Source: an uncultured Fibrobacteria bacterium
GTDB lineage: Bacteria; Fibrobacterota; Fibrobacteria; UBA11236
Reading direction: 5' to 3'
Assembly: GCA_963716395.1 (NCBI GenBank)
Contig: OY970309.1
Coordinates: 1,876,402-1,940,401 of the forward strand
DNA length: 64,000 nt
The translations under genes and the position numbers were made by a program. Positions 1 to 46,858 of the stretch are shown in pieces; the stretch's first letter is position 1, and every line of letters starts with the position of its first letter. The notes beneath the pieces were generated by a model. That model was not told the origin of the DNA. It did not search any database and worked only from the letters and a program-made list of their open reading frames with translations.

Positions 1-1640
1 GCGGAGGCGAACGCTTCGAGCGTTTCCGCAACCTGTACCGCGGCTTTTTGGAGCGCGTGGTCGACCGGCCCCTTCTCGTCGGGCTGTTCTGCTTTCTGTT
101 CGTGGCCCTGGGCATCATGGCCTATGGAAAATTCGGCACCGGCGTGACGTTCTTTCCCAATATCGAGCCCGACGTCGTGGCCGCCGAAATCACCGGGCCC
201 CTGGGCATCGACATCGCTTCGACCGATTCGGCGCTCAAAACCATCGAGGCCAAACTGTTCACCATGCCCAAGAGCGTGGCCGACGTCGACAACTATTCGG
301 CCGTGGTGGGTTTCAACAAAGTCGACGAGGGCGCGGGCGACCGCCGCCCGGCGTCGCATTACGGTTATGTCGACGTGAGTTTCGCCGATTACGATAAGCG
401 CAAGGTCAGTTCCTGGAAATCGATGCAATGGATGCAAGACAGCGTGCCCAAGGTGCTGCCCGGGTGGAAGGTGGCCATCAAGCAGCAGCAAAACGGTCCG
501 CCGCAGGGCTATCCGGTTTCTTTCGAGGTGTCGGGGAACGACTTCGACCAGTTGGCGCAAATCGCCGAGCAGGTGAAAGCGAAATTGGCCAAGGTGCCAG
601 GGCTCATCAATATCGACTGGGATTACGATCCCGTGCGGCCCGAACTTTCGGTGCAGGTCGATCGCGATCAGGCCGAACGCCTGGGCATCAGCACCAGTGA
701 AATCGCCCTGGCCGTGCGTGGCGCCATTTACGGGTATCAGGCCGCCAAATACAGGGTGGGCAAGGATGAAGACGACGTCATGGTGCGGCTCAATCCTGCC
801 ACCCGCGAAAACTTTTCTGGATTGGACCAGATCACCATTGCGCATGAGGGCGCCTTGATTCCGCTTACATCGGTGGCGCATATCACGCAGAAGGCCAGCC
901 TGGCCAGCATCCGCCACCTCGACAGCAAACGCACGATTCAAGTGTGGGCCGAACTCGCGGCCGGTGTGCGCGACGAATCCAAACCCAAGGCCGCGGCCCT
1001 GGCCGCGGTGAAAGACATTCCCGTGCCGCCGGGCTACACCTTGGAAACCGGCAGCAGCAACCGCGATCAGGACGAATCGCAGGCCTTTCTGGAAAAGGCC
1101 TTCTTGATCGCGGTGGCGCTGGTGGTGCTTACCATGGTGGCGCAGTTCAATTCCATCGCGCAGCCGTTCTTCGTCTTCATCAGCATTCTCCTTTCGTTGG
1201 GCGGCGTGTTTTGGGGATTGTTGTTCATGCACGTGACCTTTTCGATTCTCATGACCGGCATCGGCATCATCGCCTTGGCGGGCGTGGTGGCCAAGAACGG
1301 CATCGTGCTCATCGACTTCATCAATCGCTTGCGGCACAGCGGCGTGCCCTTGCGCCAGGCGGTGATCGAAGGCGGCGCCACGCGCTTGCGGCCGGTTCTG
1401 CTCACTGCGGTCACGGCCATGATCGGCCTGGTGCCCATGGCCACCGGCGTGGGTTTTGATTTCTTCCACCTGCGGCTCATTCTGCGCTCGCAGAGCTCGC
1501 TGTGGTGGACGCCGATGGCCTGGGCCATATTCTGGGGTCTGTTCTTCAACACCATTTTGACCTTGGTGGTGGTGCCCACCTTGTATCTGGGATGGGAGCG
1601 GCTCAAGGCCAAGATTCTGCGCAAACACATCGTGGTTTAA
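1..1640 (+). CDS. RND efflux transporter permease subunit, C-terminal half (5' end outside window)
   Basis: ORF 48..1640 stays open in frame back to base 3; translation shows AcrB/HAE-type transmembrane segments and tail; the listed start at 48 is only the first TTG. Confidence 0.85.
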   Translation, partial: GGERFERFRNLYRGFLERVVDRPLLVGLFCFLFVALGIMAYGKFGTGVTFFPNIEPDVVAAEITGPLGIDIASTDSALKTIEAKLFTMPKSVADVDNYSAVVGFNKVDEGAGDRRPASHYGYVDVSFADYDKRKVSSWKSMQWMQDSVPKVLPGWKVAIKQQQNGPPQGYPVSFEVSGNDFDQLAQIAEQVKAKLAKVPGLINIDWDYDPVRPELSVQVDRDQAERLGISTSEIALAVRGAIYGYQAAKYRVGKDEDDVMVRLNPATRENFSGLDQITIAHEGALIPLTSVAHITQKASLASIRHLDSKRTIQVWAELAAGVRDESKPKAAALAAVKDIPVPPGYTLETGSSNRDQDESQAFLEKAFLIAVALVVLTMVAQFNSIAQPFFVFISILLSLGGVFWGLLFMHVTFSILMTGIGIIALAGVVAKNGIVLIDFINRLRHSGVPLRQAVIEGGATRLRPVLLTAVTAMIGLVPMATGVGFDFFHLRLILRSQSSLWWTPMAWAIFWGLFFNTILTLVVVPTLYLGWERLKAKILRKHIVV

Positions 1641-1670
1641 AAAAACGGCGGAGCTTTCGCCCCGCCGTTG
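1641..1670 (-). terminator. Rho-independent terminator downstream of ahpC (minus strand)
   Basis: Inverted repeat ACGGCGG...CCGCCGT with a 6-nt loop; on the minus strand it is followed by a T-run (plus-strand A-run about 1636-1643); sits between convergent RND and ahpC stops. Confidence 0.5.
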
Positions 1671-1696: not shown

Positions 1697-2287
1697 TCAG
1701 GCCGCGTGGCGCGCGAGATAGGCTCCCACCGATTCGCGGTTTTCACGCAGGGCGTCTTCGCCCGGATGCCAGTTGGCCGGGCAGACTTCGCCGTTCTCTT
1801 CGTAGAATTGCAACGCGTCGAGAATGCGCAGGGCTTCGTCTACGCTGCGGCCCAGGGGCAAATCGTTGATCAGGGCATGCCGCACGATTCCGGCCTGGTC
1901 GATGAGAAACAAGCCGCGCAACGCCACTTCTTCGTTCAAGAGCACGCCGTATTGGCGCGCGATGGACTTGCTCAAGTCGGCCACCACGGGATGTCCGATG
2001 GCGCCGATGCCGCCTTGAACCACGGGTATATTCCGCCACGCTGCCAAGGTGTGCTGCGAATCCACCGACACGCCGATCACCTCGCAGCCGCGCGCCTGAA
2101 AATCCTTGAGCCGCTTGTCGAAGGCCAGGATTTCCGTGGGGCAGACGAAGGTGAACGCCAGCGGAAAGAAATACAGAATAACGTGCTTTCCCCGGTACGC
2201 GGCCAGATCGACTTCACCCAGCGATCCGTCGGGTAGGACCGCCTTGGCCTTAAAGGCCGGTGCGGGTTGGGTGACGAGGGTGTTCAT
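1697..2287 (-). CDS. ahpC: Peroxiredoxin (AhpC/2-Cys Prx family)
   Basis: 196 aa; FFPLAFTFVCPTEI peroxidatic-Cys motif and resolving Cys near C-terminus (EVCPANW). Confidence 0.9.
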   Translation of the reverse strand: MNTLVTQPAPAFKAKAVLPDGSLGEVDLAAYRGKHVILYFFPLAFTFVCPTEILAFDKRLKDFQARGCEVIGVSVDSQHTLAAWRNIPVVQGGIGAIGHPVVADLSKSIARQYGVLLNEEVALRGLFLIDQAGIVRHALINDLPLGRSVDEALRILDALQFYEENGEVCPANWHPGEDALRENRESVGAYLARHAA

Positions 2288-2313
2288 GGTGTTCTCCTTG
2301 GTTGATGTGATTC

Positions 2314-2802
2314 TTATTCCTCCAGCAGGCTGCGAAGCATCCAGGCGGTTTTTTCATGCACCTGTAACCGCTGGGTCAACAAATCCATGGTGGCCTGGTC
2401 GCCGGCTTTTTCCGCGGCGGGAAAAACCTCGCGCACGGTTTTGGCCACGGTTTCATGCCCTTTGACGAGCGAGCGGATCATGTCGACGGCCTTGGGCACG
2501 CCGTCTTCTTCGGCGATGGCGGTCAATTTTGCAAAGGCCGCATAGGTGGCCGGGGCCGGATGGCCCAGGGCGCGGATGCGCTCGGCTACGAGATCGACGG
2601 CCAGCGCCAATTCATTGTAATGCTGCTCGAACATGAGGTGCAGGGTTTGGAACATGGGACCGACGACGTTCCAGTGGAAGTTGTGCGTCTTCAAATACAG
2701 GGTATAAGTGTCGGCCAGCACGCGGGACAAACCTTGCGCCACCTGGCGGCGATCGGATTCGGTGATGCCGATTTCAATGGAAGCATGGGATGGGGAATTC
2801 AT
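2314..2802 (-). CDS. dps: Dps (DNA-binding ferritin-like protein)
   Basis: ORF 2314..2985; start placed at internal Met 62 ([12 protein letters not shown]...); ferritin-like Dps motifs ([16 protein letters not shown]); start overlaps the perR stop as ATGA. Confidence 0.9.
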
Positions 2803-3245
2803 GGGCGGATCTCCTTGTGTTGAGAGGTGAAGGTGCGTTGCTTTAAAGTACGTTCCCCCCGCCGGCATTCGGAACACAAACCGATGACGCGCACCGATAC
2901 CTCTTCGGCCTGGAAGTGGGCGAGTCGCGGCAGTTTGGCCGCAGCCAGGCGGCCGAGCACATCGGCGTCTTCGATGCGGCCGCATCGGCGGCAGATCAGG
3001 TGGTCGTGCCGCGCCAGCATGCCGTCGTAGCGTACGCCTTCTTCTTCCGAACCCACGCGCCGGATCGTGCCGGCCGCCAGCAGAAAATTCAACGAGTTGT
3101 ACACCGTGGCCACGCTCAGGCCCGGGTCTTTTTTCGCCACGCGGTCGAACACCTGCCGCGCCGTGGGGTGGTCATGGCTGGCGCGTACCACGTCGAGCAC
3201 GGTGCGCCGATGCGGGGTCAGGGTGTGCGAGGTCGGAGGGGTCAT
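2799..3245 (-). CDS. Fur-family transcriptional regulator, probably PerR-like peroxide sensor
   Basis: 148 aa with [10 protein letters not shown]...CSECRRG metal-binding motifs; operonic with dps and ahpC; palindromic operator immediately upstream. Confidence 0.85.
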
Positions 3246-3253
3246 GGGGAGAA

Positions 3254-3276
3254 TTTATAATTATTCTAATTATAAG
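3254..3276. promoter_or_regulatory. Fur/PerR-type operator overlapping the perR promoter
   Basis: Perfect AT-rich palindrome TATAATTA-TTC-TAATTATA about 10 bp upstream of the perR start codon; resembles PerR/Fur box half-sites TTATAAT/ATTATAA. Confidence 0.6.
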
Positions 3277-3296
3277 TCAAGCGCACTCCGGCGGCC

Positions 3297-4286
3297 TCAG
3301 GGTTTTCCGGGATGCCGTCCCTCCGGCAGATAGTGCGCCAACCAGTGCACCACGATTTTGGTGGCCAAAACGGCTCCGGCGGCATTGACATGCCCGGGGT
3401 CTTTGTAAAGACCCGCATCGTCGTCGTGCCATGCCGGCAGTCCGTAAAAGTCCAGGTAGGGAACGCCATACCGTTCCAGCACGCTATCCACGGATTGGGC
3501 CACGTATTCCAGGCTCCCGTCGTTCCGGAACTCGGGAGCGGTGAAGGCCGCCAGGAAGACGCCCTGACTTTTCAAACGTCCGGCCAAATCCGACAACATC
3601 TGCAAATGCGATCGGGAGACGGGAAAAGCGCTGCGGGGAAAATAGGGATGCCGTTTTTCGGACTTGCGTTCCAGCCGGATCACTCGCAGCGAATCTCCCG
3701 GTTCCGCCGCAAACGCGCTGAACCCGTGGGAGGTGTCCGGGAGCGGATGCAACCAATCCCGCAGCAGGTAAAAAAACTGGCCGTTGAACGGGTACAGGGC
3801 GGATAAGAATTTAAGCCGATCCAGCAGGGGCCATTCCCGCGCCTGGCGATCCACCCAGTTTCCCCGGCGCCACAGAGTGCGCAAAAAACGCCGGTCGTGC
3901 AGGGTATCGGCGTCGGCGTTCTTATCGGGGAGGAAGGCTTCCAGATCCAATTCCAACAGCACCGCGGGCGGTAACCGGCCCGCTTCCTCGATCAGCCCCA
4001 ACACGCCGTTGGCCCAATAAATTTCGTATCCGGCGTGCCCGAGATTATAGGTCGGGTAGGGAAAAAATTCGGGATCCACCGTATATTCCATGCGGCTGCT
4101 TCCCACCAGCAGCAGATACGGACGGACCCGACCCTGCAACACGTTTTGAATCCGGCCGCCATGGTCGCCGCTTCGGGTCAACCTTTGGATGCGGCGGAAG
4201 CCAAAGACGAGCAGACGATCGCATAGCAGGAGCGACCCGCCCAGCAGGGTCAGGAAAAAAAATACGCGCCGTTTTTCCCGGTTCAT
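3297..4286 (-). CDS. AlgJ/DltD/PatB-like periplasmic O-acetylation partner protein (putative)
   Basis: 329 aa with N-terminal signal anchor; directly downstream of and co-oriented with the MBOAT gene (10-bp gap); family assignment is by context. Confidence 0.5.
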   Translation of the reverse strand: MNREKRRVFFFLTLLGGSLLLCDRLLVFGFRRIQRLTRSGDHGGRIQNVLQGRVRPYLLLVGSSRMEYTVDPEFFPYPTYNLGHAGYEIYWANGVLGLIEEAGRLPPAVLLELDLEAFLPDKNADADTLHDRRFLRTLWRRGNWVDRQAREWPLLDRLKFLSALYPFNGQFFYLLRDWLHPLPDTSHGFSAFAAEPGDSLRVIRLERKSEKRHPYFPRSAFPVSRSHLQMLSDLAGRLKSQGVFLAAFTAPEFRNDGSLEYVAQSVDSVLERYGVPYLDFYGLPAWHDDDAGLYKDPGHVNAAGAVLATKIVVHWLAHYLPEGRHPGKP

Positions 4287-4296
4287 CGGCCGCGCC

Positions 4297-5778
4297 TTAG
4301 AATTTGAAATAAATGAAAGCGCCGCCGTGTTCGACGCCCAGAAGGAGTACGGCCAGCGCGAAAAACGCGTTTAAAGCCAGTGGAAATTTCCATTGAAAAC
4401 GGGATGATGGTGCGGCTTTTCCGGTCGGCACGAAGAGCGCGGCGAAGCCTTGGGAGGAGGAGGGGAAACGCCGCAGCCATACCGCTTCAAAGCCCAACAT
4501 CAAGAGCAACTGCGGCAAGGCGCTCACCAAAGAGGTTTTATGCAGGATGTGCAGGTGCAGTAAGGACGCGGGATGGGCGATGCGGGAGAAAATGAGCAGA
4601 GCTTCCCTCAATCCGCCGGCACGAAAAAGAATCCACCCCAGGCATACCACATGGAAGGTCAGAAAAATGCGCAGCGCCTGGAAGCAACGTCCCCGGAAAC
4701 CCGGGGTATGGCTCCCCTTCTCCAGAAATTTTAGGGGTAAAAATTTTTCCCGCGACAGCCAAAGGGCGTGCCAAGCGCCCCACAAAATGAAGGTCCAGGC
4801 CGCCCCGTGCCAAAGTCCCGCCAGCAACATCGTCACACACAAGTTACGTAAGGTGGCGATCTTTCCGGCCCGGTTGCCGCCCAGGGGGATGTATAAATAA
4901 TCGCGCATCAAGGTCGACAGCGAGATATGCCACCGCCGCCAGAAATCCGTCAGGGTTTCCGCGAAGTAGGGGAAGCGGAAATTTTCGCGTACTTCCACGC
5001 CCAGCATCCGCGCCGTTCCCAGCGCGATGTCCGAATATCCCGAGAAGTCGCAGTAGATCTGGAAGGCAAAGAGGTACACCGTCAGCAGCAAGGTTCCGCC
5101 TCCGAATTCCCCGGGCGAAGCAAAGGCCCAATTGACGTGCAAGGCCAGAGCGTCGGCGATGACGACCTTTTTCCACAGGCCGAACAGGGCCTGTGTCAAG
5201 CCGCCCAGAAACCGGGATGCGTTGAGTGGCGGCGCCGGGCGGTGAAATTGGGGCAGTAAGGTCGAAGCCCGCTCAATGGGCCCGGCCACGAGCAGCGGAA
5301 AGAAACAGACATACAACGCATAATGCGGAAAACTTTTTTCCACCGGCACGCGGCCGCGGTAGACATCGACGACATAGGCGATGGAATGAAAGGTGTAGAA
5401 GGAAATTCCCAAGGGCAGAATCCAATGCCAGATCGGGAACGCACGATGCAAATGCAGGGCCCGGAGGCCGACGTTGAGGCTCGCCGCCCCGAACGCCTCA
5501 TATTTGAAGAGGGCCAAGATGGAAAGATTTGCGGTGATGCCGGCCGTCAGCAAAAAACGGCGCGCCGCGGGATGCTTTTGTTGCGACAGCAGGCGCCCTA
5601 CGGTATAGTCGAACAGGGTATTGCCCAGCAGCAAAAACAGGAAAACCGGTTTCCACCAGGCGTAAAAGATCCAACTGGCGAGCAGCAAAATCGGAATGCG
5701 CCAACGATCTCCGCCCACCGAGCAGAGGATCAAAACGATTACAAAGAAAATCGGGAAGTCGAGGGACGCGAAGGTCAT
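4297..5778 (-). CDS. MBOAT family membrane-bound O-acyltransferase (AlgI/DltB/PatA-like)
   Basis: ORF 4297..5928; start placed at Met 51 (MTFASLDFPIFFVIV...); polytopic; conserved MBOAT His region (GLWHGAAWTFILWGAWH). Confidence 0.85.
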   Translation of the reverse strand: MTFASLDFPIFFVIVLILCSVGGDRWRIPILLLASWIFYAWWKPVFLFLLLGNTLFDYTVGRLLSQQKHPAARRFLLTAGITANLSILALFKYEAFGAASLNVGLRALHLHRAFPIWHWILPLGISFYTFHSIAYVVDVYRGRVPVEKSFPHYALYVCFFPLLVAGPIERASTLLPQFHRPAPPLNASRFLGGLTQALFGLWKKVVIADALALHVNWAFASPGEFGGGTLLLTVYLFAFQIYCDFSGYSDIALGTARMLGVEVRENFRFPYFAETLTDFWRRWHISLSTLMRDYLYIPLGGNRAGKIATLRNLCVTMLLAGLWHGAAWTFILWGAWHALWLSREKFLPLKFLEKGSHTPGFRGRCFQALRIFLTFHVVCLGWILFRAGGLREALLIFSRIAHPASLLHLHILHKTSLVSALPQLLLMLGFEAVWLRRFPSSSQGFAALFVPTGKAAPSSRFQWKFPLALNAFFALAVLLLGVEHGGAFIYFKF

Positions 5779-6108
5779 GGAATCCCGATCTAACGGATTT
5801 TGGCGAAACTTTCCATGCATACCGGAATTCGCTGTGCCTGCAATAATAAAACCGCGCGGAATCGAAGCCGATGTCGTGAGCTTCGCACCGGCGCCGAATC
5901 GGTGCGGGTTTTTCCGGGGGCTATCCACCCATCAGCCTTGGCTCTGGATTCACCACTGGAAAATTCTCCGTGCATGGCCCCGGAATCGGCGCTGCGCATT
6001 TTTACACTTTTCCAGGAAGAACGGCATGCCACAATTTTCGCTTTCCCATCCGGGTTCGCATCCGCCGGCTCCGGCGGTCCCGACGCGCAAGAAGACGCTC
6101 CCTTCGGC

Positions 6109-9100
6109 ATGAAACCGCGCGCCTTCAAACGCCAGCCGCGTTGGTATCTCGACGCCGTCATTTACCAGGTGCATGTCAAAAGCTTTTTCGACGGCAACGA
6201 AGACGGTTCGGGCGATCTGCCCGGTCTGATCCAAAAACTTGATTACATCCGCGAGCTGGGCGTGACGGCTTTGTGGTTGTTGCCGTTCTACCCGAGCCCG
6301 TTGCGCGACGACGGCTACGACATTTCCGACTACATGGGCGTACACCCGACCTACGGCACGCTCGACGACTTCCGCACTTTGCTGCAAGAGGCGCATGCCC
6401 GCGGCATCTACGTCATCACCGAACTGGTGATCAACCACACTTCGGATCAGCATCCCTGGTTCCAGCGCGCCCGAGTCGCGGCGCCGGGATCGACCGAGCG
6501 CGATTTCTACGTGTGGAGCGACGATCCCGAACGCTACCAGGACGCGCGCATCATCTTCAAGGATTTCGAACCGTCGAACTGGACCTGGGATTCCATCGGC
6601 AACGCCTATTACTGGCATCGCTTCTACAGCCACCAGCCCGATCTCAATTTCGACAGCCCGGCCGTGCACGAGGCCGTGCTGCAGGTGCTGGATTTCTGGC
6701 TGGGCATGGGCGTCGACGGCCTGCGGCTCGACGCCGTGCCTTACCTGTATGAACGCGAAGGCACCTCGTGCGAAAACCTGCCCGAGACGCACGCCTTTCT
6801 GCGCAAGCTCTCGGCCTATGTGCGCAAGCATTACGATGAGCGCATGCTCCTGGCCGAGGCCAACCAATGGCCCGAAGATGCGGCCGCGTATTTCGGCAAG
6901 GGCGACGAGTGCCAAATGGCCTTCCACTTTCCTCTCATGCCGCGGCTGTACATGGCCGTAGCCATGGAAGACCGCTTTCCCATCGTCGACATTCTCGAAC
7001 AGACGCCGCAGCTTCCCGAAGGCTGCCAATGGGCGATCTTTTTGCGCAACCACGACGAGCTGACGCTGGAAATGCTCACCGACGAAGAGCGCGACTACAT
7101 GGTGCGCGTGTATGCGCACGACCGCCGCGCGCGCATCAACCTCGGCATCCGCCGCCGGCTGGCGCCGCTCATGGCCAACAACCGCCGCAAGCTCGAACTG
7201 CTCAACAACCTGCTGCTCTCGCTGCCGGGCGCGCCGATTCTGTATTACGGCGACGAGATCGGCATGGGCGACAACTTCTACCTCGGCGACCGCAACGGCG
7301 TACGCACGCCCATGCAATGGAGTCCGGATCGCAATGCGGGGTTTTCCCGCGCCAATTCGCAGCGCCTGTTTCTGCCGGTTATCATCGATCCCGAATACCA
7401 TTACGAAACCGTCAACGTGGAAAACCAGGAGCACAACCCGAGTTCCCTGCTCTGGTGGCTGCGGCGGCGCATCGCCCTGCGCAACCGGCACGCCGTGTTC
7501 AGCCGCGGCGAAACGGTGTTCCTGGCTTCGGACAACGTGCGCGTGCTGGCCTTTTTGCGCCGCGCCCACGACGACGCGGTGCTCGTGGTCGCCAATCTTT
7601 CCGAGCACCCGCAGACCGCGGCGCTGGGTCTGGCCGAATGGGCCGGCAGCCGGCCCATCGAATTGACGGGGCAGACGCCGTTTCCGGCCGTCGAGGCCGA
7701 TCCGTATCGCGTCATGCTGGGATCTTACGACGTGATTTGGCTCAAGCTCTCGGCGCCGGGCGAAGCGGTCGAGCCCGATCGCTTCCAGATCCGTTCCCTG
7801 CCGCCGGCACGGAATTGGCGCGACCTGCTGCATCCTTCGCGCATCGATTTGTGGCAGTCGGCGCTGCCGTTGTGGCTTTCGAAATCCGGCCTGGCCGAAG
7901 CCAGCCTTGAACCTGTCTGCCATTTCGCCTTGCCCGGCCTGCCGCCCGAGTCGGCGGCTTTGGTGTTGGCGCGCAATACCTCGGCGCAGGGAAACGGAAG
8001 CTGGATGGCGTTGCCGCTCATGTTCGTCGAGGCCGCGGCGTCGCCGCCGCCTCCGGCGGCCGTGGTGGCGCGGGTACAGAACGGCAGCAAAAGCGGATGG
8101 CTTTGCGATGCGGCCTCGCATCCCGACGGCGCGGCCGCGTTGGCGCGCATGCTCATCACACCCTCCAGTTTGCAGGGGCCGCACGGTGTTTTAAAAGCCT
8201 GGTCGCCCCACCCGCTCGCCGACGTACCCGAGGATTTGAATCTGCGCACCGTGCCCTTGGCCGAAAATTCATCGCGCAGCGCCACGATTTCGTTTCAGGA
8301 TTTCGGCGTGCTCAAGTGGTTTCGCCAATTGCCCGAAGGCGTGCATCCCGATCCCGAAATCACCTTGTTTCTCGGCGAATGGGCGCATTTCGAAGGCGCG
8401 CCCCGCGTGCTGGGCATGCTCGAATGGCAGCCCGAAGGCGGCGAGACCTGTACCGTGGCCTATTTGCAGCAATGGGTGCGCGCGGATCGCAGCGCCTGGG
8501 ATTTGTTCTGCGACGTGCTGGCCAAAGCCATTGAGTCGGTCGAAGTCGACGGCCGCCTGTGGAGCCAGCCTCCGGCCCTGGGTAATTATGCGCGTCCATC
8601 CGATTTCGAAACCTGGGCCGAACCTTTGCAGGAGGCCCTGGGCGGACATGTGCGGGAATTTCTGATTCTCCTCGGCGAACGCGTGGCGGCCTTGCATCTG
8701 GCGTTGGCTTCGGATTCGGACGTGCCCGAATTCGAACCCGAACCGTTCACCTGGCATTACCAGCAGGCGGCGTTCCAGGCGATTCGCAGCCTGATGAACC
8801 GGCATTACTCGCGCTTGCAATACGCCGCGACCCATTGGGAGGCGCCACTGCGCGAGCTCGCGCAGGAAGTGCTGGAGGGCCGCGACGCCGTGCTGGCCCG
8901 CATCCGCCCGCTGCGCGAGCGGAAAATCGAAACCTCCAAGATCCGCATCCACGGCAACCTGACCTTGTCGCAAATCCTGTTCACCGGCAAAGACTTCGTT
9001 TTGCAGGCGTTCGAAGGCGACCCGCACTTCACGCCCGAAGAACGCCGGCACAAATACTCGGCGCTGCGCGATGTGGCCACCTTGATTCGGTCGTTTCAGG

Positions 9101-9393
9101 CCGCCGCCGAGGTCGCAGGACGGCGCCATACCGAGCAGCGCAGCGGCGACTTCGGAACCCACCATCATTGGGCGCGCGTGCTGGGCCAATTGGCGGCGGG
9201 CGTGTGTTATCGCGCCTATCTCGGGCGCGCCGCGCACGCTCCCTTTCTGCCGGCGACGGAAGAGGACCGGAACCTTTTGCTCGAAGCCTTTTTGCTCGAG
9301 AAGGCGTTGCATGAGTTGGGCCGCGCCCTGGACGCCAGCCCCGAAGCGCAGTCCTCGGCCTTGCGCGGGCTGATCGCGCTGCAATCGAGATAA
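6109..9393 (+). CDS. treS: Trehalose synthase (maltose alpha-D-glucosyltransferase) fused to a C-terminal maltokinase-like domain
   Basis: ORF 5800..9393; start placed at Met 104 (MKPRAFKRQPRWYLDAVIYQVHVKSFFD...), the conserved TreS N-terminus; GH13 motifs (LRLDAVPYLYEREGTSCENLPETH); C-terminal ~450 aa carry a kinase-like loop (RIHGNLTLSQILF...DFVLQAFEGDP). Confidence 0.85.
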   Translation: MKPRAFKRQPRWYLDAVIYQVHVKSFFDGNEDGSGDLPGLIQKLDYIRELGVTALWLLPFYPSPLRDDGYDISDYMGVHPTYGTLDDFRTLLQEAHARGIYVITELVINHTSDQHPWFQRARVAAPGSTERDFYVWSDDPERYQDARIIFKDFEPSNWTWDSIGNAYYWHRFYSHQPDLNFDSPAVHEAVLQVLDFWLGMGVDGLRLDAVPYLYEREGTSCENLPETHAFLRKLSAYVRKHYDERMLLAEANQWPEDAAAYFGKGDECQMAFHFPLMPRLYMAVAMEDRFPIVDILEQTPQLPEGCQWAIFLRNHDELTLEMLTDEERDYMVRVYAHDRRARINLGIRRRLAPLMANNRRKLELLNNLLLSLPGAPILYYGDEIGMGDNFYLGDRNGVRTPMQWSPDRNAGFSRANSQRLFLPVIIDPEYHYETVNVENQEHNPSSLLWWLRRRIALRNRHAVFSRGETVFLASDNVRVLAFLRRAHDDAVLVVANLSEHPQTAALGLAEWAGSRPIELTGQTPFPAVEADPYRVMLGSYDVIWLKLSAPGEAVEPDRFQIRSLPPARNWRDLLHPSRIDLWQSALPLWLSKSGLAEASLEPVCHFALPGLPPESAALVLARNTSAQGNGSWMALPLMFVEAAASPPPPAAVVARVQNGSKSGWLCDAASHPDGAAALARMLITPSSLQGPHGVLKAWSPHPLADVPEDLNLRTVPLAENSSRSATISFQDFGVLKWFRQLPEGVHPDPEITLFLGEWAHFEGAPRVLGMLEWQPEGGETCTVAYLQQWVRADRSAWDLFCDVLAKAIESVEVDGRLWSQPPALGNYARPSDFETWAEPLQEALGGHVREFLILLGERVAALHLALASDSDVPEFEPEPFTWHYQQAAFQAIRSLMNRHYSRLQYAATHWEAPLRELAQEVLEGRDAVLARIRPLRERKIETSKIRIHGNLTLSQILFTGKDFVLQAFEGDPHFTPEERRHKYSALRDVATLIRSFQAAAEVAGRRHTEQRSGDFGTHHHWARVLGQLAAGVCYRAYLGRAAHAPFLPATEEDRNLLLEAFLLEKALHELGRALDASPEAQSSALRGLIALQSR

Positions 9394-9966
9394 GACACTA
9401 AAGGTCTGTAAAAAAATAACCGCACCATTCGGCCTAAGGTCCATCTCACCCGCCTGTCCACCTCTGGCGGACTCGTCGCTTGCATACTCCCGGTATGCGG
9501 CGCTCCTTGCGCCTGGCCGGGTGGGCGGCTCTTCGTCCTCGGAGTGATGCGCTTATTTCTTTCCGGGCCCTCATCGTGATTTCGCCGTCGCCGCGGAGGC
9601 AGACTTTCACTGCGAAACGCCCTGGTAATTGTTCGTTACAACATCTTTTTGCGAATTTCTTTTTTATAGATTACCGCATTTCAGTATCTGCAAAGCCCCA
9701 TGCGCATTCATCGTTTCGTCTTCTGCCCGATAGCCGGTGTCGTGCGGAGTGTCTGTCATTCGTACGCAGACGCGCGGGCAGCCAAAACGTATGCCGGCAG
9801 AATGTCCGAAACACGGGCCGCCGTGGTGCTCAACCCCGCCAAGGTTTCTTCCGACGCGACCGCGACTGGCGCAGAGCTGACCTATCTGCAGGTCGATGCG
9901 CAAACTGAAATCGCGGGCAAAGTGGGGGAAATGGCTCGGATATTGGGGGGAAGGAACGGTTTTATT

Positions 9967-11460
9967 GTGTTGCCACCAATAAGAAAAATTACCGTCGCAC
10001 TTGGGATCGTTCTGCTGATGGTCGGCTGTGCCGTGGGGCCGGATTTCAAGCGTCCGGCAGCGCCGGCCGCCAAGGAATACACTTCCCATCCGCTACCGGC
10101 CGACGTTGAGCCGGGGGGCGGCGGCGGAGCGCCCCAGCATTTCGTGCAGAACATGGACATTCCCGCCCAATGGTGGACCTTGTTTCATTCCCCGTCTCTG
10201 AACCGGCTGGTGGAACAGGCCTTGAAGGCCAACCCCACCCTGAAGGCGGCGGAAGCCACCTTGCGCCAGGCGCAGGAAAACGTGTACGCTGCGGAAGGCG
10301 CCCTGTTTCCCTCCGTCAATGCCAACGGTGCGGTCTCCCGGCAAAAGACCAATGGTGCAACGGCCGGAAAGGCAGGCCCGGGCCCCTTGTTTACGCTGTA
10401 TAACGCTTCGGTCAGCGTCTCCTACGGCATCGACATTTTCGGCACGGCGCGCAGAACGCTGGAAGCGATCGGGGCGCAAGCCGATTTCGAGCGGTTCCAG
10501 ATGAAAGCCGCCACCCTGACGCTGACCTCGAATGTGGTCACCACCGCGGTGCAGGAAGCCTCGTTGCAGGCCCAGATCGCGGCCACTCGCGAAATCGTCG
10601 ACGTGCAAAGCCAGCAGCTCGACGTGCTGCAACATCAGTCCAACGTGGGCGCCGTTTCGCTGGCCAGCGTGCTGGCGCAAAAGACGACACTGGCACAAAC
10701 GCGCGCCAACCTGCCGGTGCTGGAAAAACAATTGGCGCTGATCCACAACCAGTTGGCGGCGCTGGCCGGCCATTTCCCGAGCCAGGACGGCGGGGTCACC
10801 TTCGATCTCGATTCGCTGCAACTTCCGCAGGAACTGCCGGTAAGCCTGCCTTCCATGCTGGTCAAGCAGCGCCCCGACATCCGCGCCTCGGAGTCCCAGT
10901 TGCATGCGGCCAGCGCCGAGATCGGTGTGGCCACGGCGAACATGTTCCCGCAATTCACCATCAGTGGCAGTGCGGGTTCCGTCGCCAACGCCGCTGGCAA
11001 CCTGTTCACGGCCGGATCGGGGATCTGGGACGCCGTTGCCGGCCTGACCCAGCCGATCTTCCACGGCGGCACGCTGTTGCACCAGCGTCGTGCCGCCGTC
11101 GCCGCTTACGCCGCGGCCGAAGCACAATATCGCAGCACCGTGTTGTCGGCTTTCCAGGATGTGGCCAATGTGCTGGACGCCCTGCAATTCGATGCGACCA
11201 TCCTGCAGGCGCAGCAGACCGCCGCGCAATCTGCGGCCGAGTACCTCGACATCGCGCGCCAACAATACCAATCCGGCGCCATCAGCTTCATAGCGCTGCT
11301 GAATGCCCAGCAGGCGTATCAGCAGACGCGCATCGCCCTGGTGCAGGCGCGCGCCAGCCGTTACACGGATACTGCCGCCCTGTTCGCTTCGCTAGGTGGC
11401 GGCTGGTGGAGCCGCAAAGACGCGGACATGGACAAGCAACCGGGAGCAGACAAACCATGA
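9967..11460 (+). CDS. Efflux transporter outer membrane factor lipoprotein (NodT/OprM family)
   Basis: ORF 9700..11460; lipoprotein signal peptide and lipobox (ITVALGIVLLMVGC); start placed at in-frame GTG behind an AGGA RBS (ATG at 9931 is the alternative); two TolC-like repeat halves. Confidence 0.8.
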   Translation: MLPPIRKITVALGIVLLMVGCAVGPDFKRPAAPAAKEYTSHPLPADVEPGGGGGAPQHFVQNMDIPAQWWTLFHSPSLNRLVEQALKANPTLKAAEATLRQAQENVYAAEGALFPSVNANGAVSRQKTNGATAGKAGPGPLFTLYNASVSVSYGIDIFGTARRTLEAIGAQADFERFQMKAATLTLTSNVVTTAVQEASLQAQIAATREIVDVQSQQLDVLQHQSNVGAVSLASVLAQKTTLAQTRANLPVLEKQLALIHNQLAALAGHFPSQDGGVTFDLDSLQLPQELPVSLPSMLVKQRPDIRASESQLHAASAEIGVATANMFPQFTISGSAGSVANAAGNLFTAGSGIWDAVAGLTQPIFHGGTLLHQRRAAVAAYAAAEAQYRSTVLSAFQDVANVLDALQFDATILQAQQTAAQSAAEYLDIARQQYQSGAISFIALLNAQQAYQQTRIALVQARASRYTDTAALFASLGGGWWSRKDADMDKQPGADKP

Positions 11461-12646: not shown

Positions 12647-15600
12647 ATGAAATTTACCGATATCTTCATCCGCCGGCCGGTATTGGCCATGGTCGTCAGC
12701 CTGTTCCTGCTGGTGCTGGGCCTGCGCTCGTTCGGCACCCTGCCGATCTTGCAGTTTCCGCGCACGCAGAATGCGGTGATCACCGTGAGCACGACCTATT
12801 TCGGCGCCGACCCGGATCTGGTGGCCGGTTTCATCACCACGCCGCTGGAAAATGCCATCGCCCAGGTCAACGGCATCGATTACATGACCTCGAGCAGCAC
12901 CAACAGCCGCAGCGTGATCACGGTGAACCTGAAGCTGAATTACGACGCGGACAAGGCGCTGACCGAGATGAACGCGCAGATCAGTTCGGTGCTCAACCAG
13001 TTGCCGCCGCAGACGCAAAAGCCGGTGATGACCATCAGCATCGGCCAGACCCTCGATGCCATGTATATCGGCTTTTCCAGCAAGGAGCTGCCGTCCAACC
13101 GCATCACGGATTATTTGCAGCGCGTGGTGCAACCGAAACTGCAGGCGGTGGATGGCGTGCAGACCGCCGAACTGCTCGGCGCCAAGAACTTCGCCCTGCG
13201 CGCATGGCTCAACCCGAAGAAGCTGGCGGCCTACGGACTGACGGCGGCCGATGTCAGCGCGGCACTGGCGCAAAACGATTTCCTCTCCGGCGTGGGCAAC
13301 ACCAAGGGGCTGATGGTGCAGACCAACCTGAATGCCTCGACCAATCTGCATTCGCTGGACGAGTTCCGCAATCTGGTGATCCGGCAATCCGGCCATGCGA
13401 TGGTGCGGCTGAAGGATATCGCCAATGTCACGCTGGGAGCCGATGACTACGACAGCCAGGTGTCCTTCGACGGCCAAGACGCAACGTATATCGGTATCCA
13501 GGTGGCGCCCAGCGCCAACCTGCTCGACGTGATCAAGCGCGTGCGCGAGGTGATGCCGGAATTACAGGCCCAGTTGCCGGAGGGGATCGACGCCCGAATC
13601 GTTTACGACTCCACCCGCTTCGTCAACAGTTCGATCCAGGAAGTGATCAAGACCCTGATCGAAGCGATCCTCGTGATCATGCTGGTGATCTTCGCCTTCC
13701 TCGGTTCGCCGCGTTCGGTGCTGATCCCGGTGATCGCCATCCCGCTTTCGCTGATTGGAACATTCACGTTCATGCTCGCATTCGGTTTTTCCATCAACCT
13801 CCTGACCCTGCTGGCCTTCGTGCTCGCCATTGGGCTGGTGGTCGACGATGCCATCATCGTGGTGGAGAACGTCAGTCGCCACATCGAAGAAGGCGTGCCC
13901 CCGATGCAGTCCGCACTCCATGCCGCGCGCGAATTGGCCGGCCCCATCATCGCCATGACGGTCGTGCTGGTTTCGGTGTACGTGCCGATCGGATTCCAGG
14001 GCGGACTGACCGGCGCCCTGTTCACTGAATTTGCCTTCACGCTGGTCGGCACCGTCACGGTGTCTGCGATCATTGCGCTGACCCTATCGCCCATGATGTG
14101 CTCGCGGCTGCTCCGGCCGCACCGCCCGGAGGATACTGGCCTGGAATCGCGCGTCGTGCACTTCATCAATGCGACCTTTGAAAAGGTGCGGAAAGTTTAC
14201 GCGCGCACGCTGCACAACTCGCTCGACTACCTGCCGGTGACGGCGGTGTTCGCGCTGATCGTGCTGGGCAGCATTTACTTTTTGTATTCCGCCGCCAAAC
14301 ATGAGCTTGCGCCGCAGGAAGACCAGGGCGTCATTATCGCCTCGCTGACGCCGGCGCCCAATTCGACCCTGCAACAACAGGAGTTGTACTCGCAACAGAA
14401 CTACCGGATCTATGCCAAACATGCGGAGACCGACCATGTCTTCCAGTTCGATTTGCCGGGCAGGATGTTTGCCGGCATGGTGCTGAAACCGTGGGACGAG
14501 CGTGACAAGACGACGAACCAGTTGCAGCCGGTGGTCCAAAAAGAATTGGGCGACATTGCCGGTGTGCAAGCGGTGGCCTTCCAGCCGCCCTCGTTGCCGG
14601 GCAGCCGCGGTTTGCCCATCCAGTTCGTCATCGGCACCACCCAGCCCTTCGACCGCCTGAACGATGTCGTGCAGAATTTCCTGGAGCAGGCGCAGAAGAG
14701 CGGCATGTTCATGTTCATCAACTCCGACCTGCGCATTGACCTGCCGCAATCCACCGTGGAAATCGACCGCAACAAGGCCGCCTTGCTCGGCCTGTCCATG
14801 CAGGATATCGGCAACTCGCTGGCCGCCATGCTGGGAGGCGGCTACGTGAACTATTTCAGCCTGTCGGGGAGATCGTACAAGGTCATTCCCCAGGTGCAGC
14901 AGCGCTACCGCTTGAACACATCGCAGCTGCTCAACTATTACATCCGCACCGCCAGCGGCACCTCCGTGCCGCTGTCCAGCGTGGTGCACATCACGACCAA
15001 GACGGCGCCGGAATCGCTGAACCACTTCCAGCAGCTCAATGCGGCCACCGTGCAGGGCGTGGCTTCGCCCGGCATCACGACCGGCGAGGCGCTGAGCTAT
15101 CTCAAGCATCTGGCCGACCGGACTCTGCCGCAGGGCTATTCGATAGATTACGCCGGACAATCGCGCCAGTTCATGCAGGAATCCACCGGCTTCGTGACCC
15201 TGTTCGCCTTTGCGCTGATCATCATTTTCCTGGCACTGGCGGCGCAATTCGAAAGCTTCCGCGATCCGTTCATCATCCTGGTCTCGGTGCCGATGTCTGT
15301 CGCCGGCGCGCTGATCTTCGTCAGCCTGGGCATCGGCGGCGCCAGCCTGAACATCTACACGCAGGTCGGGCTGGTGACGCTGATGGGACTGATCAGCAAG
15401 CACGGCATTCTGATCGTGCAGTTTGCCAACAACCTGCGCCGGGAAGGCAAGACCAAGCGTGAGGCCATCGAGGAAGCCGCCACCATCCGGCTGCGCCCGA
15501 TTCTAATGACCACCGCCGCAATGGTGCTGGGCGTGATTCCGCTGATCGTCGCCAGCGGCGCCGGTGCGGCGGCGCGCTATAACTTAGGGCTGGTCATCGC

Positions 15601-15715
15601 CAGCGGACTCGCCATCGGCACTTTGTTCACACTGCTGGTGGTGCCGGCCGTATACATGCAGATCGCCAGCAATCACGTGAAACCACGCGCAACGGCCGAT
15701 AGCTCTACAGTCTGA
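12647..15715 (+). CDS. RND multidrug efflux permease (HAE1/AcrB family)
   Basis: 1022 aa; N-terminus MKFTDIFIRRPVLAMVVSLFLLVLG and 12-TM architecture typical of AcrB/MexB. Confidence 0.95.
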   Translation: MKFTDIFIRRPVLAMVVSLFLLVLGLRSFGTLPILQFPRTQNAVITVSTTYFGADPDLVAGFITTPLENAIAQVNGIDYMTSSSTNSRSVITVNLKLNYDADKALTEMNAQISSVLNQLPPQTQKPVMTISIGQTLDAMYIGFSSKELPSNRITDYLQRVVQPKLQAVDGVQTAELLGAKNFALRAWLNPKKLAAYGLTAADVSAALAQNDFLSGVGNTKGLMVQTNLNASTNLHSLDEFRNLVIRQSGHAMVRLKDIANVTLGADDYDSQVSFDGQDATYIGIQVAPSANLLDVIKRVREVMPELQAQLPEGIDARIVYDSTRFVNSSIQEVIKTLIEAILVIMLVIFAFLGSPRSVLIPVIAIPLSLIGTFTFMLAFGFSINLLTLLAFVLAIGLVVDDAIIVVENVSRHIEEGVPPMQSALHAARELAGPIIAMTVVLVSVYVPIGFQGGLTGALFTEFAFTLVGTVTVSAIIALTLSPMMCSRLLRPHRPEDTGLESRVVHFINATFEKVRKVYARTLHNSLDYLPVTAVFALIVLGSIYFLYSAAKHELAPQEDQGVIIASLTPAPNSTLQQQELYSQQNYRIYAKHAETDHVFQFDLPGRMFAGMVLKPWDERDKTTNQLQPVVQKELGDIAGVQAVAFQPPSLPGSRGLPIQFVIGTTQPFDRLNDVVQNFLEQAQKSGMFMFINSDLRIDLPQSTVEIDRNKAALLGLSMQDIGNSLAAMLGGGYVNYFSLSGRSYKVIPQVQQRYRLNTSQLLNYYIRTASGTSVPLSSVVHITTKTAPESLNHFQQLNAATVQGVASPGITTGEALSYLKHLADRTLPQGYSIDYAGQSRQFMQESTGFVTLFAFALIIIFLALAAQFESFRDPFIILVSVPMSVAGALIFVSLGIGGASLNIYTQVGLVTLMGLISKHGILIVQFANNLRREGKTKREAIEEAATIRLRPILMTTAAMVLGVIPLIVASGAGAAARYNLGLVIASGLAIGTLFTLLVVPAVYMQIASNHVKPRATADSSTV

Positions 15716-27651: not shown

Positions 27652-30351
27652 TTAATGCGCGTTCAACACCAAGCGGCGCCATACATGGCCGTCTGGTTGG
27701 CGTAATTGCAAGACCACCAAACCCTCGGACAGGCCGTGTAGGTCCACCGAGCTGCCGTCGGAGGCAGGCTGCAAGATCAAGCTGCTAACGCCGTGGCCGT
27801 TGATGGGGGTGACCGTCAATTGCGCCGCTTGCGACAGTCCAAAAAGACGGAAACGGCCGTTGCCCAGGTTTTGCAGGACAAGGTCCTTCGCCGCAGACGA
27901 CGGCCGGACGCCCGCATTCCCCGGTAAAATTTGAAAGACGTGATCGCTGAGGTCACGGGTACGCCCGAAATACTCATACACGGTGACCAGGCAGCGGTTT
28001 GAAACCAAGGATTTTCCATCCAAAGAATCGGGCAACTGGAAGGCGAAGCGGCCCCAATCGGCATCGCCGACGCGCACCGAACTGGTGCGGGTGAGGGGAA
28101 TCCAACTCGCGCCGCTATCCACGGAAAGCTCGATGCCAACCGAAAGCACCCACGACGTGTCGGCGGTCCAACGCACAATCAGGGAATCGCCGACTCGATA
28201 TTGCTCGCCCCCGTTGGGCGCATTCACCTGCACGGGTGTGGGCGCATCGCTGTAGGCTTCGATCGCGGCCAAGCCATAACCGCCGCCGTCGGCCGCGCTG
28301 AGCGAGATGCCGAGTCCGTTGCTGTCGGATACCGTGACATCCGTCTCAAAAATCATTGCCCCGATGGCACCCGCGGGCTTGGCCGGCGCCGCGAAGGGCG
28401 CTCCGATGGTTTGACCTTCGAGTCCCACGCTCAAACTTGAGGTTGCCTTCGCCGACGCATCGTTCAAGCTGGTGAAATGCAGACGCACGTGATAGCGGTT
28501 GTTGGGTACCGGCAGGGTCAAACCGGAAGGGCTGTTGCGATAGAGGCGGTAGGCGACCGCGGGAGCCGGGTCGATGACCGAATCCAGTTGCACGATGGTG
28601 TCGCTTTGCCGCACCAGCGGCATCGTACCCAGGAGGGAGGTATCCGGCAGCCAGCCCGCACCCAGGGCGGGTTCAGCGGCATAGCGCCATACGCCTTTGG
28701 CCACCACCACCGAAGTGGTGCACACCACGGCCCCTTCAGACCCGTAAGCGGAAAAGGTGTGGAAGACCTGGCTCGAATCCGCGGTGGCTTGTCCGCCGGA
28801 GGTGAGATGCAAACCGGAAGAACCGGTCCAGGTCAAGGGCGATGCCAAAGTCCAGGGCCGTCCGATTTGATCCTTTCCATCCGCCGCGAGCTGCACCGTG
28901 TCGCCCGGCCGGAGCACGGCCGTATGCGGACGCGGCACCAGGGTGGTGAGCGCCGGATTGGCATACAGGAAGGTTACGGTGTAAGCCGCTGAATCGACGC
29001 CCTGGCCATAGCTCAAAACCACACGGGCCCTATAACTTCCCAGGGGCAGATTTTTGCGGGTCACGGTGTTGACCACCTGCGGGGCATTGGTGCCATTGGC
29101 GAGAATCGTGACCCGCAGCCAGGTGGTGTCGGAATCGGGATAGGCGGCCGTCAACGGCGGCAAAACGCCATCGCCGGCGTTGGATACATGCGTCGTGTCG
29201 GGTCCAGGGTCGGCGCTGTCTTGCGGCAGCGCGGTGAACAGGAAGGCATCGCGATCCAGGCGAAGAGTGGCCGGGGTTACGCCGTTTTTGACCCACAGAT
29301 GCGGGGTCAGATTCACCCCGTCGCCTTCCAACACCCGCAGCAGGCGGCTGGGACCGGAGGTATCGATGCGCACGATGTAGAGATCGCCCGAATCGGCGAT
29401 ATCGACGTCTTTGGATCCGGTGGCCGTGAAATAGTCTTCGTCGGTGGACCATTCGGGGTTACCCCAGAATAGATTGCCGCTGCTGTCGTTGTTGCAGTTG
29501 TCACCGGGAATGCCCATGTACCAGAAGGGATGATCGATGTCGGGATCATTCCAACCCCGGATGAAAATAGCCTTGTGGTTGTCGTAAACCTTGCCCTCCA
29601 CCGTGCCTTGCCCCGAGGTCAAATACATCATGCGGTCCTGGCGCGTGGGATCGGTCGACATGCTGATCGAGGCGTTGCAACCCGACAGCCATCCCGAGGT
29701 CAGCCAGTTTTTCGAGGCCAGGTAGGCCGTATCGATTCGGGTGGAATCGAGTTCGTACATGCCGGTGCTGTGGTGTGACGAAGCGCCCCACCGCCCGTCG
29801 CGCGAGCGACCCGTCGACATCAGATAGGGCACCAGCATCGTGGCCGGCCCCAATGTGTCATGGCCGTTGACGATGCGCCGGATATAGGTGCCCCCGCTGG
29901 CGGGCGGCCAGGTGGGGTCATTGATGTCGCCCAAGGTGTAGGTCACGTATTCGTTCCCAGTGCCGGGTTGCACCCACCAATGGGGCTCCAACGATTCGCC
30001 GCTGGGACGATCCACGCTGCCGCAGTAAACCGCGTATTCGGTTTGCGAGTTCTCGACCAGGTCGCGCACGAACACGCTATCGAAGCGTTCGTAGAGCACG
30101 CGCGTTCCGTCCCAACTGATCATGGGGTTGGCGGCCTCGGTCGTGGCCACCCGGTGTTCCACCAGTACGCTGTCGTCAAAGTCGAGGTAATAAATCTGGT
30201 AGGTGTAGTCCCGGATGAACGCGACTTTGCCGGTGCGGCCGCCCAAAAAGGCGCGCACCTCCGGGCCGGTGACCAGGGCCTTGGCCTCCGCGGGCCGCCA
30301 GACCGACAGCATCGCCGCACCCACGGCGGCGGCCCACCCGAAAAATTTCAC
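27652..30351 (-). CDS. Large secreted multidomain protein (beta-propeller-like N-region, Ig-like repeats, possible C-terminal sorting domain)
   Basis: ORF 27652..30423; start placed at GTG (MKFFGWAAAVGAAMLSVWRPAEA signal peptide) overlapping the SGNH stop as GTGA; beta-rich repeats; C-terminal ~80 aa resemble a Por/T9SS-type sorting domain. Confidence 0.6.
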   Translation of the reverse strand: MKFFGWAAAVGAAMLSVWRPAEAKALVTGPEVRAFLGGRTGKVAFIRDYTYQIYYLDFDDSVLVEHRVATTEAANPMISWDGTRVLYERFDSVFVRDLVENSQTEYAVYCGSVDRPSGESLEPHWWVQPGTGNEYVTYTLGDINDPTWPPASGGTYIRRIVNGHDTLGPATMLVPYLMSTGRSRDGRWGASSHHSTGMYELDSTRIDTAYLASKNWLTSGWLSGCNASISMSTDPTRQDRMMYLTSGQGTVEGKVYDNHKAIFIRGWNDPDIDHPFWYMGIPGDNCNNDSSGNLFWGNPEWSTDEDYFTATGSKDVDIADSGDLYIVRIDTSGPSRLLRVLEGDGVNLTPHLWVKNGVTPATLRLDRDAFLFTALPQDSADPGPDTTHVSNAGDGVLPPLTAAYPDSDTTWLRVTILANGTNAPQVVNTVTRKNLPLGSYRARVVLSYGQGVDSAAYTVTFLYANPALTTLVPRPHTAVLRPGDTVQLAADGKDQIGRPWTLASPLTWTGSSGLHLTSGGQATADSSQVFHTFSAYGSEGAVVCTTSVVVAKGVWRYAAEPALGAGWLPDTSLLGTMPLVRQSDTIVQLDSVIDPAPAVAYRLYRNSPSGLTLPVPNNRYHVRLHFTSLNDASAKATSSLSVGLEGQTIGAPFAAPAKPAGAIGAMIFETDVTVSDSNGLGISLSAADGGGYGLAAIEAYSDAPTPVQVNAPNGGEQYRVGDSLIVRWTADTSWVLSVGIELSVDSGASWIPLTRTSSVRVGDADWGRFAFQLPDSLDGKSLVSNRCLVTVYEYFGRTRDLSDHVFQILPGNAGVRPSSAAKDLVLQNLGNGRFRLFGLSQAAQLTVTPINGHGVSSLILQPASDGSSVDLHGLSEGLVVLQLRQPDGHVWRRLVLNAH

Positions 30352-46857: not shown

Positions 46858-46858
46858 C

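Follow-up and report, generated by a model that had tools for sequence, protein, structure and literature searches.

A predicted PerR operator fused to the promoter of a compact perR-dps-ahpC operon in a Fibrobacterota-like bacterium

Bacillus subtilis PerR controls mrgA/dps, ahpCF, katA, and perR itself through a 15-bp operator of 7-1-7 symmetry, the Per box, for which the consensus TTATAATNATTATAA has been quoted (PMC545781). A second published 15-bp consensus, TTANAATNATTNTAA (PMC2518855, Table 3), applies to PerR of Group A Streptococcus and S. suis, whose targets include dpr (a Dps) and ahpC; the Group A Streptococcus ahpC and pmtA sites, TTAGAATCATTTTAA and TTAGAATTATTATAA, both begin with TTAGAAT (PMC2518855 Table 3, PMC3458967 Table 1). 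In mycobacterial furA-katG loci, a PerR-like repressor stands first in an operon with a peroxide-detoxifying enzyme, under an inverted-repeat operator that lies over its own promoter, and furA1-katG1 of M. smegmatis is an autoregulated operon with a leaderless mRNA (PMC12713383, Fig 4 legend). Predictions for Desulfovibrio and Geobacter likewise place perR first in a peroxide-defence operon with a palindrome at its own promoter, with SD-bearing leaders predicted for the Geobacter perR operons (PMC545781).

Here, we analyze a perR-dps-ahpC locus within a 64-kb stretch of DNA (hereafter the window). We consider it likely that the three genes form a self-repressed peroxide-stress operon, served by a single sigma-70-type promoter with PerR acting at a Per box, and probably leaderless. 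The predicted regulator is only distantly related in sequence to B. subtilis PerR, but the two share the Cys4 zinc site, identical ligands (H37, D85, H91, H93, and D104 in B. subtilis) and Asn61, as well as a 15-bp 7-1-7 operator, a Dps homologue and AhpC as targets, and self-repression, the last three on the window's side being predictions. They differ in the half-site, TTAGAAT in the window's clade versus TTATAAT in B. subtilis, and in that the window regulator and its targets are fused in one operon, probably leaderless, in a Gram-negative Fibrobacterota-like host.

The streptococcal consensus fits the window box, whereas streptococcal boxes lie tens to more than 100 nt upstream of separate genes and are not fused to a perR −10 element and start codon. 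Mycobacterial furA-katG differs in its partner (a catalase-peroxidase rather than Dps and a peroxiredoxin), its GTG start, its phylum, and its operator sequence. Desulfovibrio vulgaris perR-rbr-rdl and the delta-proteobacterial regulons resemble the window locus in having a palindromic box at their own promoter and at ahpC, and in being small and mostly local (PMC545781), but the box there reads AwnAGnAATngTTnCTnwT and the partners are rubrerythrin and rubredoxin. Every element of the locus therefore has precedent; what is particular is the combination, the compactness, the lineage, and the breadth over which the box variant TTAGAATnATTCTAA is conserved, a string that we did not find as a stated consensus in the literature searched.

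A PerR-type regulator at the head of a peroxide-defence operon

The operon comprises the following features:

2799–3245, minus strand: PerR-type Fur-family repressor, 148 aa (Pfam, NCBIfam, structure match, and signature residues)
2811–2816, minus strand: Shine-Dalgarno sequence AAGGAG for dps, inside the perR 3' end, 8 nt before the ATG
2314–2802, minus strand: Dps, ferritin-like DNA-protection protein, 162 aa (Pfam/NCBIfam)
2294–2299, minus strand: Shine-Dalgarno sequence AAGGAG for ahpC, 6 nt before the ATG
1697–2287, minus strand: typical 2-Cys peroxiredoxin (AhpC/Prx type), 196 aa (Pfam/NCBIfam)
1637–1669, minus strand: intrinsic terminator after ahpC, with an 11-pair stem (8 GC), a GAAA loop, and a T-run

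The gene order, the ATGA overlap, and the hairpin terminator had been described in the original prediction, and all are present: the dps ATG (2802–2800) overlaps the perR TGA (2801–2799) as ATGA, ahpC follows with 26 nt between the dps stop and its own start, and the terminator, whose hairpin and T-run span 1669–1644, comes after it. From this layout we infer that perR, dps, and ahpC are co-transcribed. The peroxiredoxin carries the motifs FVCPTE and EVCPANW, whose cysteines we take to be the catalytic pair of a typical 2-Cys enzyme, and no ahpF gene is adjacent to the window operon. The gene orders perR-dps-ahpC, perR-ahpC-dps, and perR-ahpC recur in relatives, and in nearly every relative peroxide-defence genes are linked to the regulator by genomic association. 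As a separate observation, the window PerR extends about 20 aa past its second CxxC motif (2799–2860, minus strand), a C-terminal tail that is missing in most relatives; the dps Shine-Dalgarno sequence falls within the DNA for this tail, which looks as if an intergenic spacer had been taken into the reading frame.

The regulator matched the Pfam FUR family (PF01475) with 76.8 bits against a cut-off of 23.1 (E 2.1e-21). Its top two NCBIfam matches were PerR models (3.3e-24 and 1.3e-22), ahead of the best Fur model at 1.3e-15, and PerR models also took the top two places for all 32 aligned relatives, some 8–9 orders of E-value in front of Fur. The equivalog cut-offs were missed (NF047406, 85.6 versus 200 bits; NF052545, 80.2 versus 180). 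Judged from their names, TransRegPerRTherm and TransRegPerRClab, the equivalog models look lineage-specific, so that a missed cut-off means "not that ortholog group" rather than "not a PerR". The window protein is PerR-like by its signature residues and not a curated equivalog. A genome-collection scan with the regulator protein alone returned only a 28%-identical homologue from Gaiellaceae.

The best match among solved structures was B. subtilis PerR itself (2fe3, 4.6e-17; phmmer, 65.7 bits over 127 residues). In the alignment, H26, D74, H80, H82, and D93 correspond to the B. subtilis ligands H37, D85, H91, H93, and D104; the two CxxC motifs (C85, C88, C124, and C127) correspond to C96, C99, C136, and C139; and N50, within ATVYNSL, corresponds to Asn61 of the recognition helix. 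The metal ligands, the four cysteines, and N50 are invariant in 32 relatives of 45–72% identity.

These positions separate the members of the family. Where PerR has Asp104 and Asn61, Fur has Glu and Arg (PMC4866751, PMC8638967), the Asn-versus-Arg distinction being drawn in PMC8638967 with reference to Caux-Thang 2015; Zur is without His37 and has Cys replacing Asp85 (PMC4866751, PMC8638967); Irr has Asp and Asn as in PerR but is without the CxxC motifs (PMC8638967), and a structural zinc site of two CxxC motifs is a criterion for PerR (PMC4866751). The window regulator has Asp93 and Asn50 where Fur has Glu and Arg, the two residues that the Fur structure 9ire (ATVYRTL), retrieved in the same search, shows at the discriminating positions. 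It also has both CxxC motifs, unlike Irr, whose models matched at only ~1e-10. By alignment, then, the regulator has every canonical PerR signature residue feature and groups with PerR, not Fur. Whether it would fall with PerR or with iron-responsive Fur had been raised alongside the original prediction, and the models, the 2fe3 match, and the invariant Asp and Asn all place it with PerR.

One might still read the protein as an iron-sensing Fur (or a Zur, Mur, or Nur) and the palindrome upstream of its gene as a Fur box through which dps and ahpC would respond to iron status instead of peroxide. The protein does belong to the Fur family and is still matched by Fur models at 1e-15, Dps is an iron protein, and a 19-bp palindrome in the spacer shares its hexamer layout with the classical Fur box GATAAT-GATAAT-C-ATTATC. 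This reading is very improbable given the invariant Asp where Fur-type sensors have Glu, the invariant Asn in place of the recognition-helix Arg, and the precedence of PerR over Fur models in all 32 relatives. The equivalents of His37 and Asp85, missing in Zur, are present in the regulator. The linked genes are those of peroxide defence in nearly every relative, and the half-site of the box, TTAGAAT or TTATAAT, is unlike those of B. subtilis Fur (TGATAAT) and Zur (TCGTAAT). We thus return to PerR as the preferred identity.

The Per box and its promoter

The interval between the upstream gene and perR contains the following features:

3246–3296, minus strand: spacer of 51 bp, from the upstream gene stop (TGA, 3299–3297) to the perR ATG
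3275–3280, minus strand: −35 hexamer TTGACT (consensus promoter scan)
3252–3257, minus strand: −10 hexamer TAAATT (promoter scan), 17 nt from the −35
3246–3251, minus strand: discriminator CTCCCC, 6 nt between the −10 and the ATG, without a Shine-Dalgarno sequence
3255–3275, no strand: perfect 9-3-9 inverted repeat (repeat finder)
3255–3269, minus strand: 15-bp 7-1-7 Per box TTAGAAT-A-ATTATAA, predicted PerR operator core (conservation and published consensus)

On the coding strand, the spacer reads GGCCGCCGGAGTGCGC-TTGACT-TATAATTAGAATAATTA-TAAATT-CTCCCC-ATG. A consensus scan of the spacer found exactly one minus-strand promoter, TTGACT-17 nt-TAAATT. Promoter and operator together take up the 35 bp next to the gene, and the 16 bp at the far end of the spacer (GGCCGCCGGAGTGCGC) are unremarkable GC-rich sequence in a window of ~61% G+C. 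A promoter filling all 51 bp had been predicted; the length of the spacer is as described, but its full occupancy is not. The −10 element had been placed within the palindrome and less than 10 nt from the ATG, of which the distance holds (6 nt), while only the TAA of TAAATT falls inside the palindrome.

The palindrome that had drawn attention to the locus, TATAATTA-TTC-TAATTATA, is present at 3256–3274, is perfect, and extends to 9-nt arms as TTATAATTA-TTC-TAATTATAA. According to the repeat finder, its arms (3255–3263 and 3267–3275) are 100% complementary and 3 nt apart. The 21-bp palindrome was found once in the 64-kb window, where dinucleotide shuffles allowing up to 3 mismatches put the chance expectation at 0.00 for the 21-mer and at 0.02 for a pattern of the arms only. 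Inside it lies the 19-mer TATAAT-TAGAAT-A-ATTATA, which has the hexamer geometry of a 19-bp Fur-type box. The classical 19-bp Fur box is GATAATGATAATCATTATC. The window site shares with it the three-hexamer, near 9-1-9 layout and can be read, like it, as two overlapping 7-1-7 sites; it differs in having T rather than G at the hexamer start and in accompanying a protein with PerR discriminators. Most relatives keep only one 7-1-7 site, unlike the classical Fur box.

The 7-1-7 site nearer the gene is the one that is conserved. The window Per box, TTAGAATAATTATAA (3269–3255), differs from the clade consensus TTAGAATnATTCTAA at a single position and matches the published consensus TTANAATNATTNTAA exactly, in line with the proposed resemblance to Fur/PerR boxes. 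Its centre (3262) lies 3 bp from that of the palindrome (3265), and its final three bases are the TAA that opens the −10. We gathered homologous loci by exact-protein look-ups and by one metagenome scan with the family alignment. The exact pattern TTAGAATNATTCTAA occurred once per locus in 48 of 85 loci, each time immediately upstream of the Fur-family gene. Among 72 distinct homologous loci, 44 carry the exact box and 16 a box with one mismatch (60/72 at 0–1 mismatch), whereas shuffling the full 368 kb of collected loci gave a chance expectation of ~1.45 matches at up to 2 mismatches. This conservation upstream of the regulator's own gene fits the autoregulation that had been proposed for the operon. 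Conservation upstream of orthologues, which had been looked for in the form of the 8-3-8 palindrome, is found for the operator in another form: the conserved predicted operator is the 7-1-7 Per box that overlaps the palindrome, not the palindrome itself.

The box keeps its sequence while its position relative to the promoter changes. In the window's clade it fills the spacer between −35 and −10 and provides the TAA of the −10; in soil loci at ~40–43% identity it lies 10–11 nt past TTGACA, over the −10; and in gut Firmicutes-like loci it follows closely on a TATAAT −10 (the flanks of the latter two groups were read by eye). A sequence that is kept while moving relative to the promoter, and that is tied to one regulator family, is best explained as the binding site of that regulator.

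These observations bear on the suggestion that the palindrome is a mere AT-rich core promoter with overlapping −10-like hexamers, or an RNA hairpin, and binds no repressor. It does overlap the promoter spacer and the −10 and contains several TATAAT-like hexamers, and AT-rich promoters in GC-rich genomes often look palindromic. We nevertheless regard this explanation as close to negligible, since 14 specified box bases are kept in very different genomes, the box occupies three positions relative to −35 and −10 (flanks read by eye), and a second copy stands before dps or ahpC in relatives. As for a hairpin, the spacer folded as RNA gave −9.2 kcal/mol (z = −0.37), no more stable than shuffles, and a leaderless mRNA would not include the palindrome. 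The same fold led us to reject both a riboregulator and an upstream-gene terminator within the spacer. A scan of the whole 64 kb against Rfam brought no family to its gathering score and thus no described RNA gene or riboswitch; with the fold no better than shuffles and no Rfam match in the window, an RNA element is unlikely. The preferred reading of the site remains a PerR operator.

In eight distinct relatives, the spacer that separates perR from dps or ahpC holds a second box (exact or with 1–2 mismatches):

L004, 4435–4449: second Per box
L006, 802–816: second Per box
L007, 2650–2664: second Per box
L008, 2904–2918: second Per box
L088, 2946–2960: second Per box
L089, 2935–2949: second Per box
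L091, 2928–2942: second Per box
L094, 2908–2922: second Per box

The site thus recurs at other peroxide-stress promoters, a point on which the original prediction had proposed to be judged. Ahead of the second box, at a distance of 6 nt, stands a T-run or TTTRCC, and the end of the box is a −10-like hexamer, mostly TAAATC (read by eye). A Bacteroidota-style promoter (−33 TTTG/−7 TAnnTTTG) was considered at this position; its −7 part is mismatched, and we take the upstream element to be an ordinary weak −35. In L092 a run of N (2958–3056) between perR and ahpC in the public record leaves a second box beyond judgement. The spacer that holds the second box is missing from the window and its relatives L003 and L086, each of which has only one box, suggesting that in this sublineage the three genes have been compacted behind a single operator. 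No further box was found in the 64-kb window, even at 3 mismatches.

The perfection of the longer palindrome is particular to the window. Its outer arm beside the −35 (TATAA) is common only to the window and its closest relatives, L003 and L086, and the window alone among 15 clade promoters has A at 3258, where the others have C (box position 12, nearly invariant). The longer palindrome is perfect because of this single C-to-A change relative to the closest relatives, which weakens the 7-1-7 symmetry and completes the 9-3-9 repeat. The perfect longer palindrome is, by this comparison, specific to the window genome.

These features also allow the full 19–21-bp palindrome to be read as the operator, binding two PerR dimers on opposite faces of the DNA, in the manner of the classical Fur box, and compensating for the lost second operator. 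The 21-mer can be broken down into two 7-1-7 sites, TTATAAT-T-AGAATAA and TTAGAAT-A-ATTATAA, which are shifted against each other by 6 bp, with their centres 3 bp to the left and right of the palindrome's own. Only the window, L003, and L086, the single-box, compacted loci, have the extra TTATAAT beside the −35. Set against this, the upstream 7-1-7 site has 4 mismatches to the clade consensus, and the window, L003, and L086 are mutual closest relatives, so that shared ancestry explains the pattern equally well. We judge a two-dimer operator unlikely and keep the single 15-bp Per box as the predicted site of PerR binding.

The 5' end of the perR message

The start of the gene coincides with the predicted start of its transcript:

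3243–3245, minus strand: perR ATG, with the predicted transcription start at A3245 (from the −10 spacing)

No start codon other than the ATG at 3245 lies ahead of the invariant residues T10, H12, and R13. In sigma-70 promoters, the initiating purine usually lies 7 nt after the −10, and leaderless translation requires a 5'-terminal AUG. With 6 nt between the end of the −10 and the ATG, A3245 occupies this usual +1 position.

We compared 15 distinct promoters from the window's clade (44–74% protein identity), which could be aligned without ambiguity. Thirteen of them have 6 nt between −10 and ATG, and the other 2 have 7 nt. The TTG of the −35, the closing T of the −10, and the ATG are invariant and the A of the −35 nearly so; the Per box is kept, and the −10 is always TAAnnT at the same position. 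By contrast, the bases between −10 and ATG vary freely (CTCCCC, GTGGGC, ATGGGC, ATGCCC, ATTCCC, ATGGAC, CTGTGT, AAAGGC, GAGTGC, ATACCC, and CTGTTC, among others), none of the 15 spacers resembles a Shine-Dalgarno sequence, and all 15 starts are ATG. In both the window and relatives, dps and ahpC have AAGGAG-type sites, showing that these organisms do use Shine-Dalgarno sequences and that the absence of one at perR is gene-specific. The perR mRNA is probably leaderless, starting at A3245, as this conserved geometry suggests; a leaderless or near-leaderless message had been proposed from the window alone, and the 6–7-nt, SD-free interval kept across the clade speaks for it.

An alternative keeps the control by PerR while giving up the leaderless start: transcription would begin a few nucleotides further upstream, or perR would be translated mainly from read-through of the upstream gene pair that includes an MBOAT-family gene, without a Shine-Dalgarno sequence. 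An alternative −10, TATAAA (3259–3254), can be drawn with a 15-nt spacer, and more distant homologues have real leaders of ~20–30 nt with SD-like sequences (read by eye). The promoter and terminator scan found no terminator between the upstream pair and the perR promoter; since the upstream gene is co-directional, leadered read-through transcripts are possible. Such read-through would not be a conserved feature, however, as the neighbour upstream of perR in relatives is a DoxX-family gene rather than the MBOAT pair. With the interval from −10 to ATG at 6 nt in 13/15 and 7 nt in 2/15 clade promoters, free in sequence and never SD-like, and with ATG as the start throughout the clade, we find a leadered perR rather unlikely. 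The leaderless start at A3245 is the reading carried forward here.

Proposed regulation and genomic setting

In the regulation that we propose, a metal-loaded PerR dimer would bind the 15-bp Per box TTAGAATAATTATAA (3269–3255). As the box takes up the promoter spacer and the −10 begins with its last three bases, RNA polymerase would be kept off by the bound repressor. If the window protein works like B. subtilis PerR, H2O2 would oxidise an iron-bound histidine (His26 or His80), the oxidised repressor would come off the DNA, and transcription of the operon would follow, most likely from the A of the perR ATG, giving a leaderless message. Translation of dps and ahpC would proceed from their own AAGGAG sites, with dps coupled to perR through the ATGA overlap. 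AhpC would then remove peroxide and Dps would sequester iron, while newly made PerR would shut the promoter again, closing a loop of negative autoregulation. We infer DNA binding, peroxide sensing, and the exact transcription start from sequence anatomy, family features, and conservation.

A more far-reaching, tentative reading joins these features into one history, and we hold it to be possible though on the doubtful side. It sees the 35-bp module of the Fibrobacterota-like clade as a fusion of operator arm, −10, transcription start, and start codon, in which repressor occupancy, promoter recognition, and 5'-AUG initiation would be physically coupled. In the sublineage of the window, the separate PerR-controlled promoter of dps or ahpC would have been lost and the three genes compacted, and through the C-to-A change the 7-1-7 box would have become a perfect Fur-box-like site of 21 bp, with possible room for two dimers. 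If true, this would be a conserved leaderless design for a stress regulator outside the phyla with well-documented leaderless genes, and a small natural example of operator remodelling alongside operon compaction.

The likelier reading, a self-repressed operon, allows a confident annotation of a peroxide-stress regulator and its predicted operator in an uncultured Gram-negative Fibrobacterota-like lineage. It extends the known PerR mechanism to a new lineage and leaves the current understanding of PerR unchanged. Because the TTAGAATnATTCTAA variant is conserved across very different genomes, the box could serve as a probe for PerR regulons in metagenome-assembled genomes. The invariant distance between −10 and ATG, in turn, makes perR a clean test case for conserved leaderless expression of a regulator gene.

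The surroundings of the operon point to the type of host. An outer-membrane efflux protein (OEP, 9700–11460) and an AcrB-type pump (12647–15715) form a further RND set in addition to an AcrB-type RND efflux gene that is convergent with the operon end (48–1640, plus strand), an arrangement also seen in the closest relative, L003 (3397–6217). The window also encodes a protein with a TonB-dependent-receptor plug domain, and its DnaE (46853–50401) has as nearest named relatives, taking best matches only, MAGs of Fibrobacterota at 51–66% identity. The efflux protein, the pump, the TonB plug, and the DnaE matches together point to a Gram-negative, Fibrobacterota-like bacterium as the source.

Immediately upstream of perR and co-directional with it lie a 329-aa ORF (3297–4286, minus strand) with no Pfam or NCBIfam match and an MBOAT/DltB-like acyltransferase (4297–5928, minus strand); the pair may serve acylation of a polysaccharide or of a teichoic-acid-type polymer. 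Two large ORFs elsewhere in the window, of 923 aa (27652–30423, minus strand) and 582 aa (33098–34846, minus strand), have no Pfam match at 1e-5. A third, of 1197 aa (5800–9393, plus strand), resembles by eye a GH13 trehalose-synthase-type enzyme in its N-terminal part, to which a long C-terminal domain is fused.
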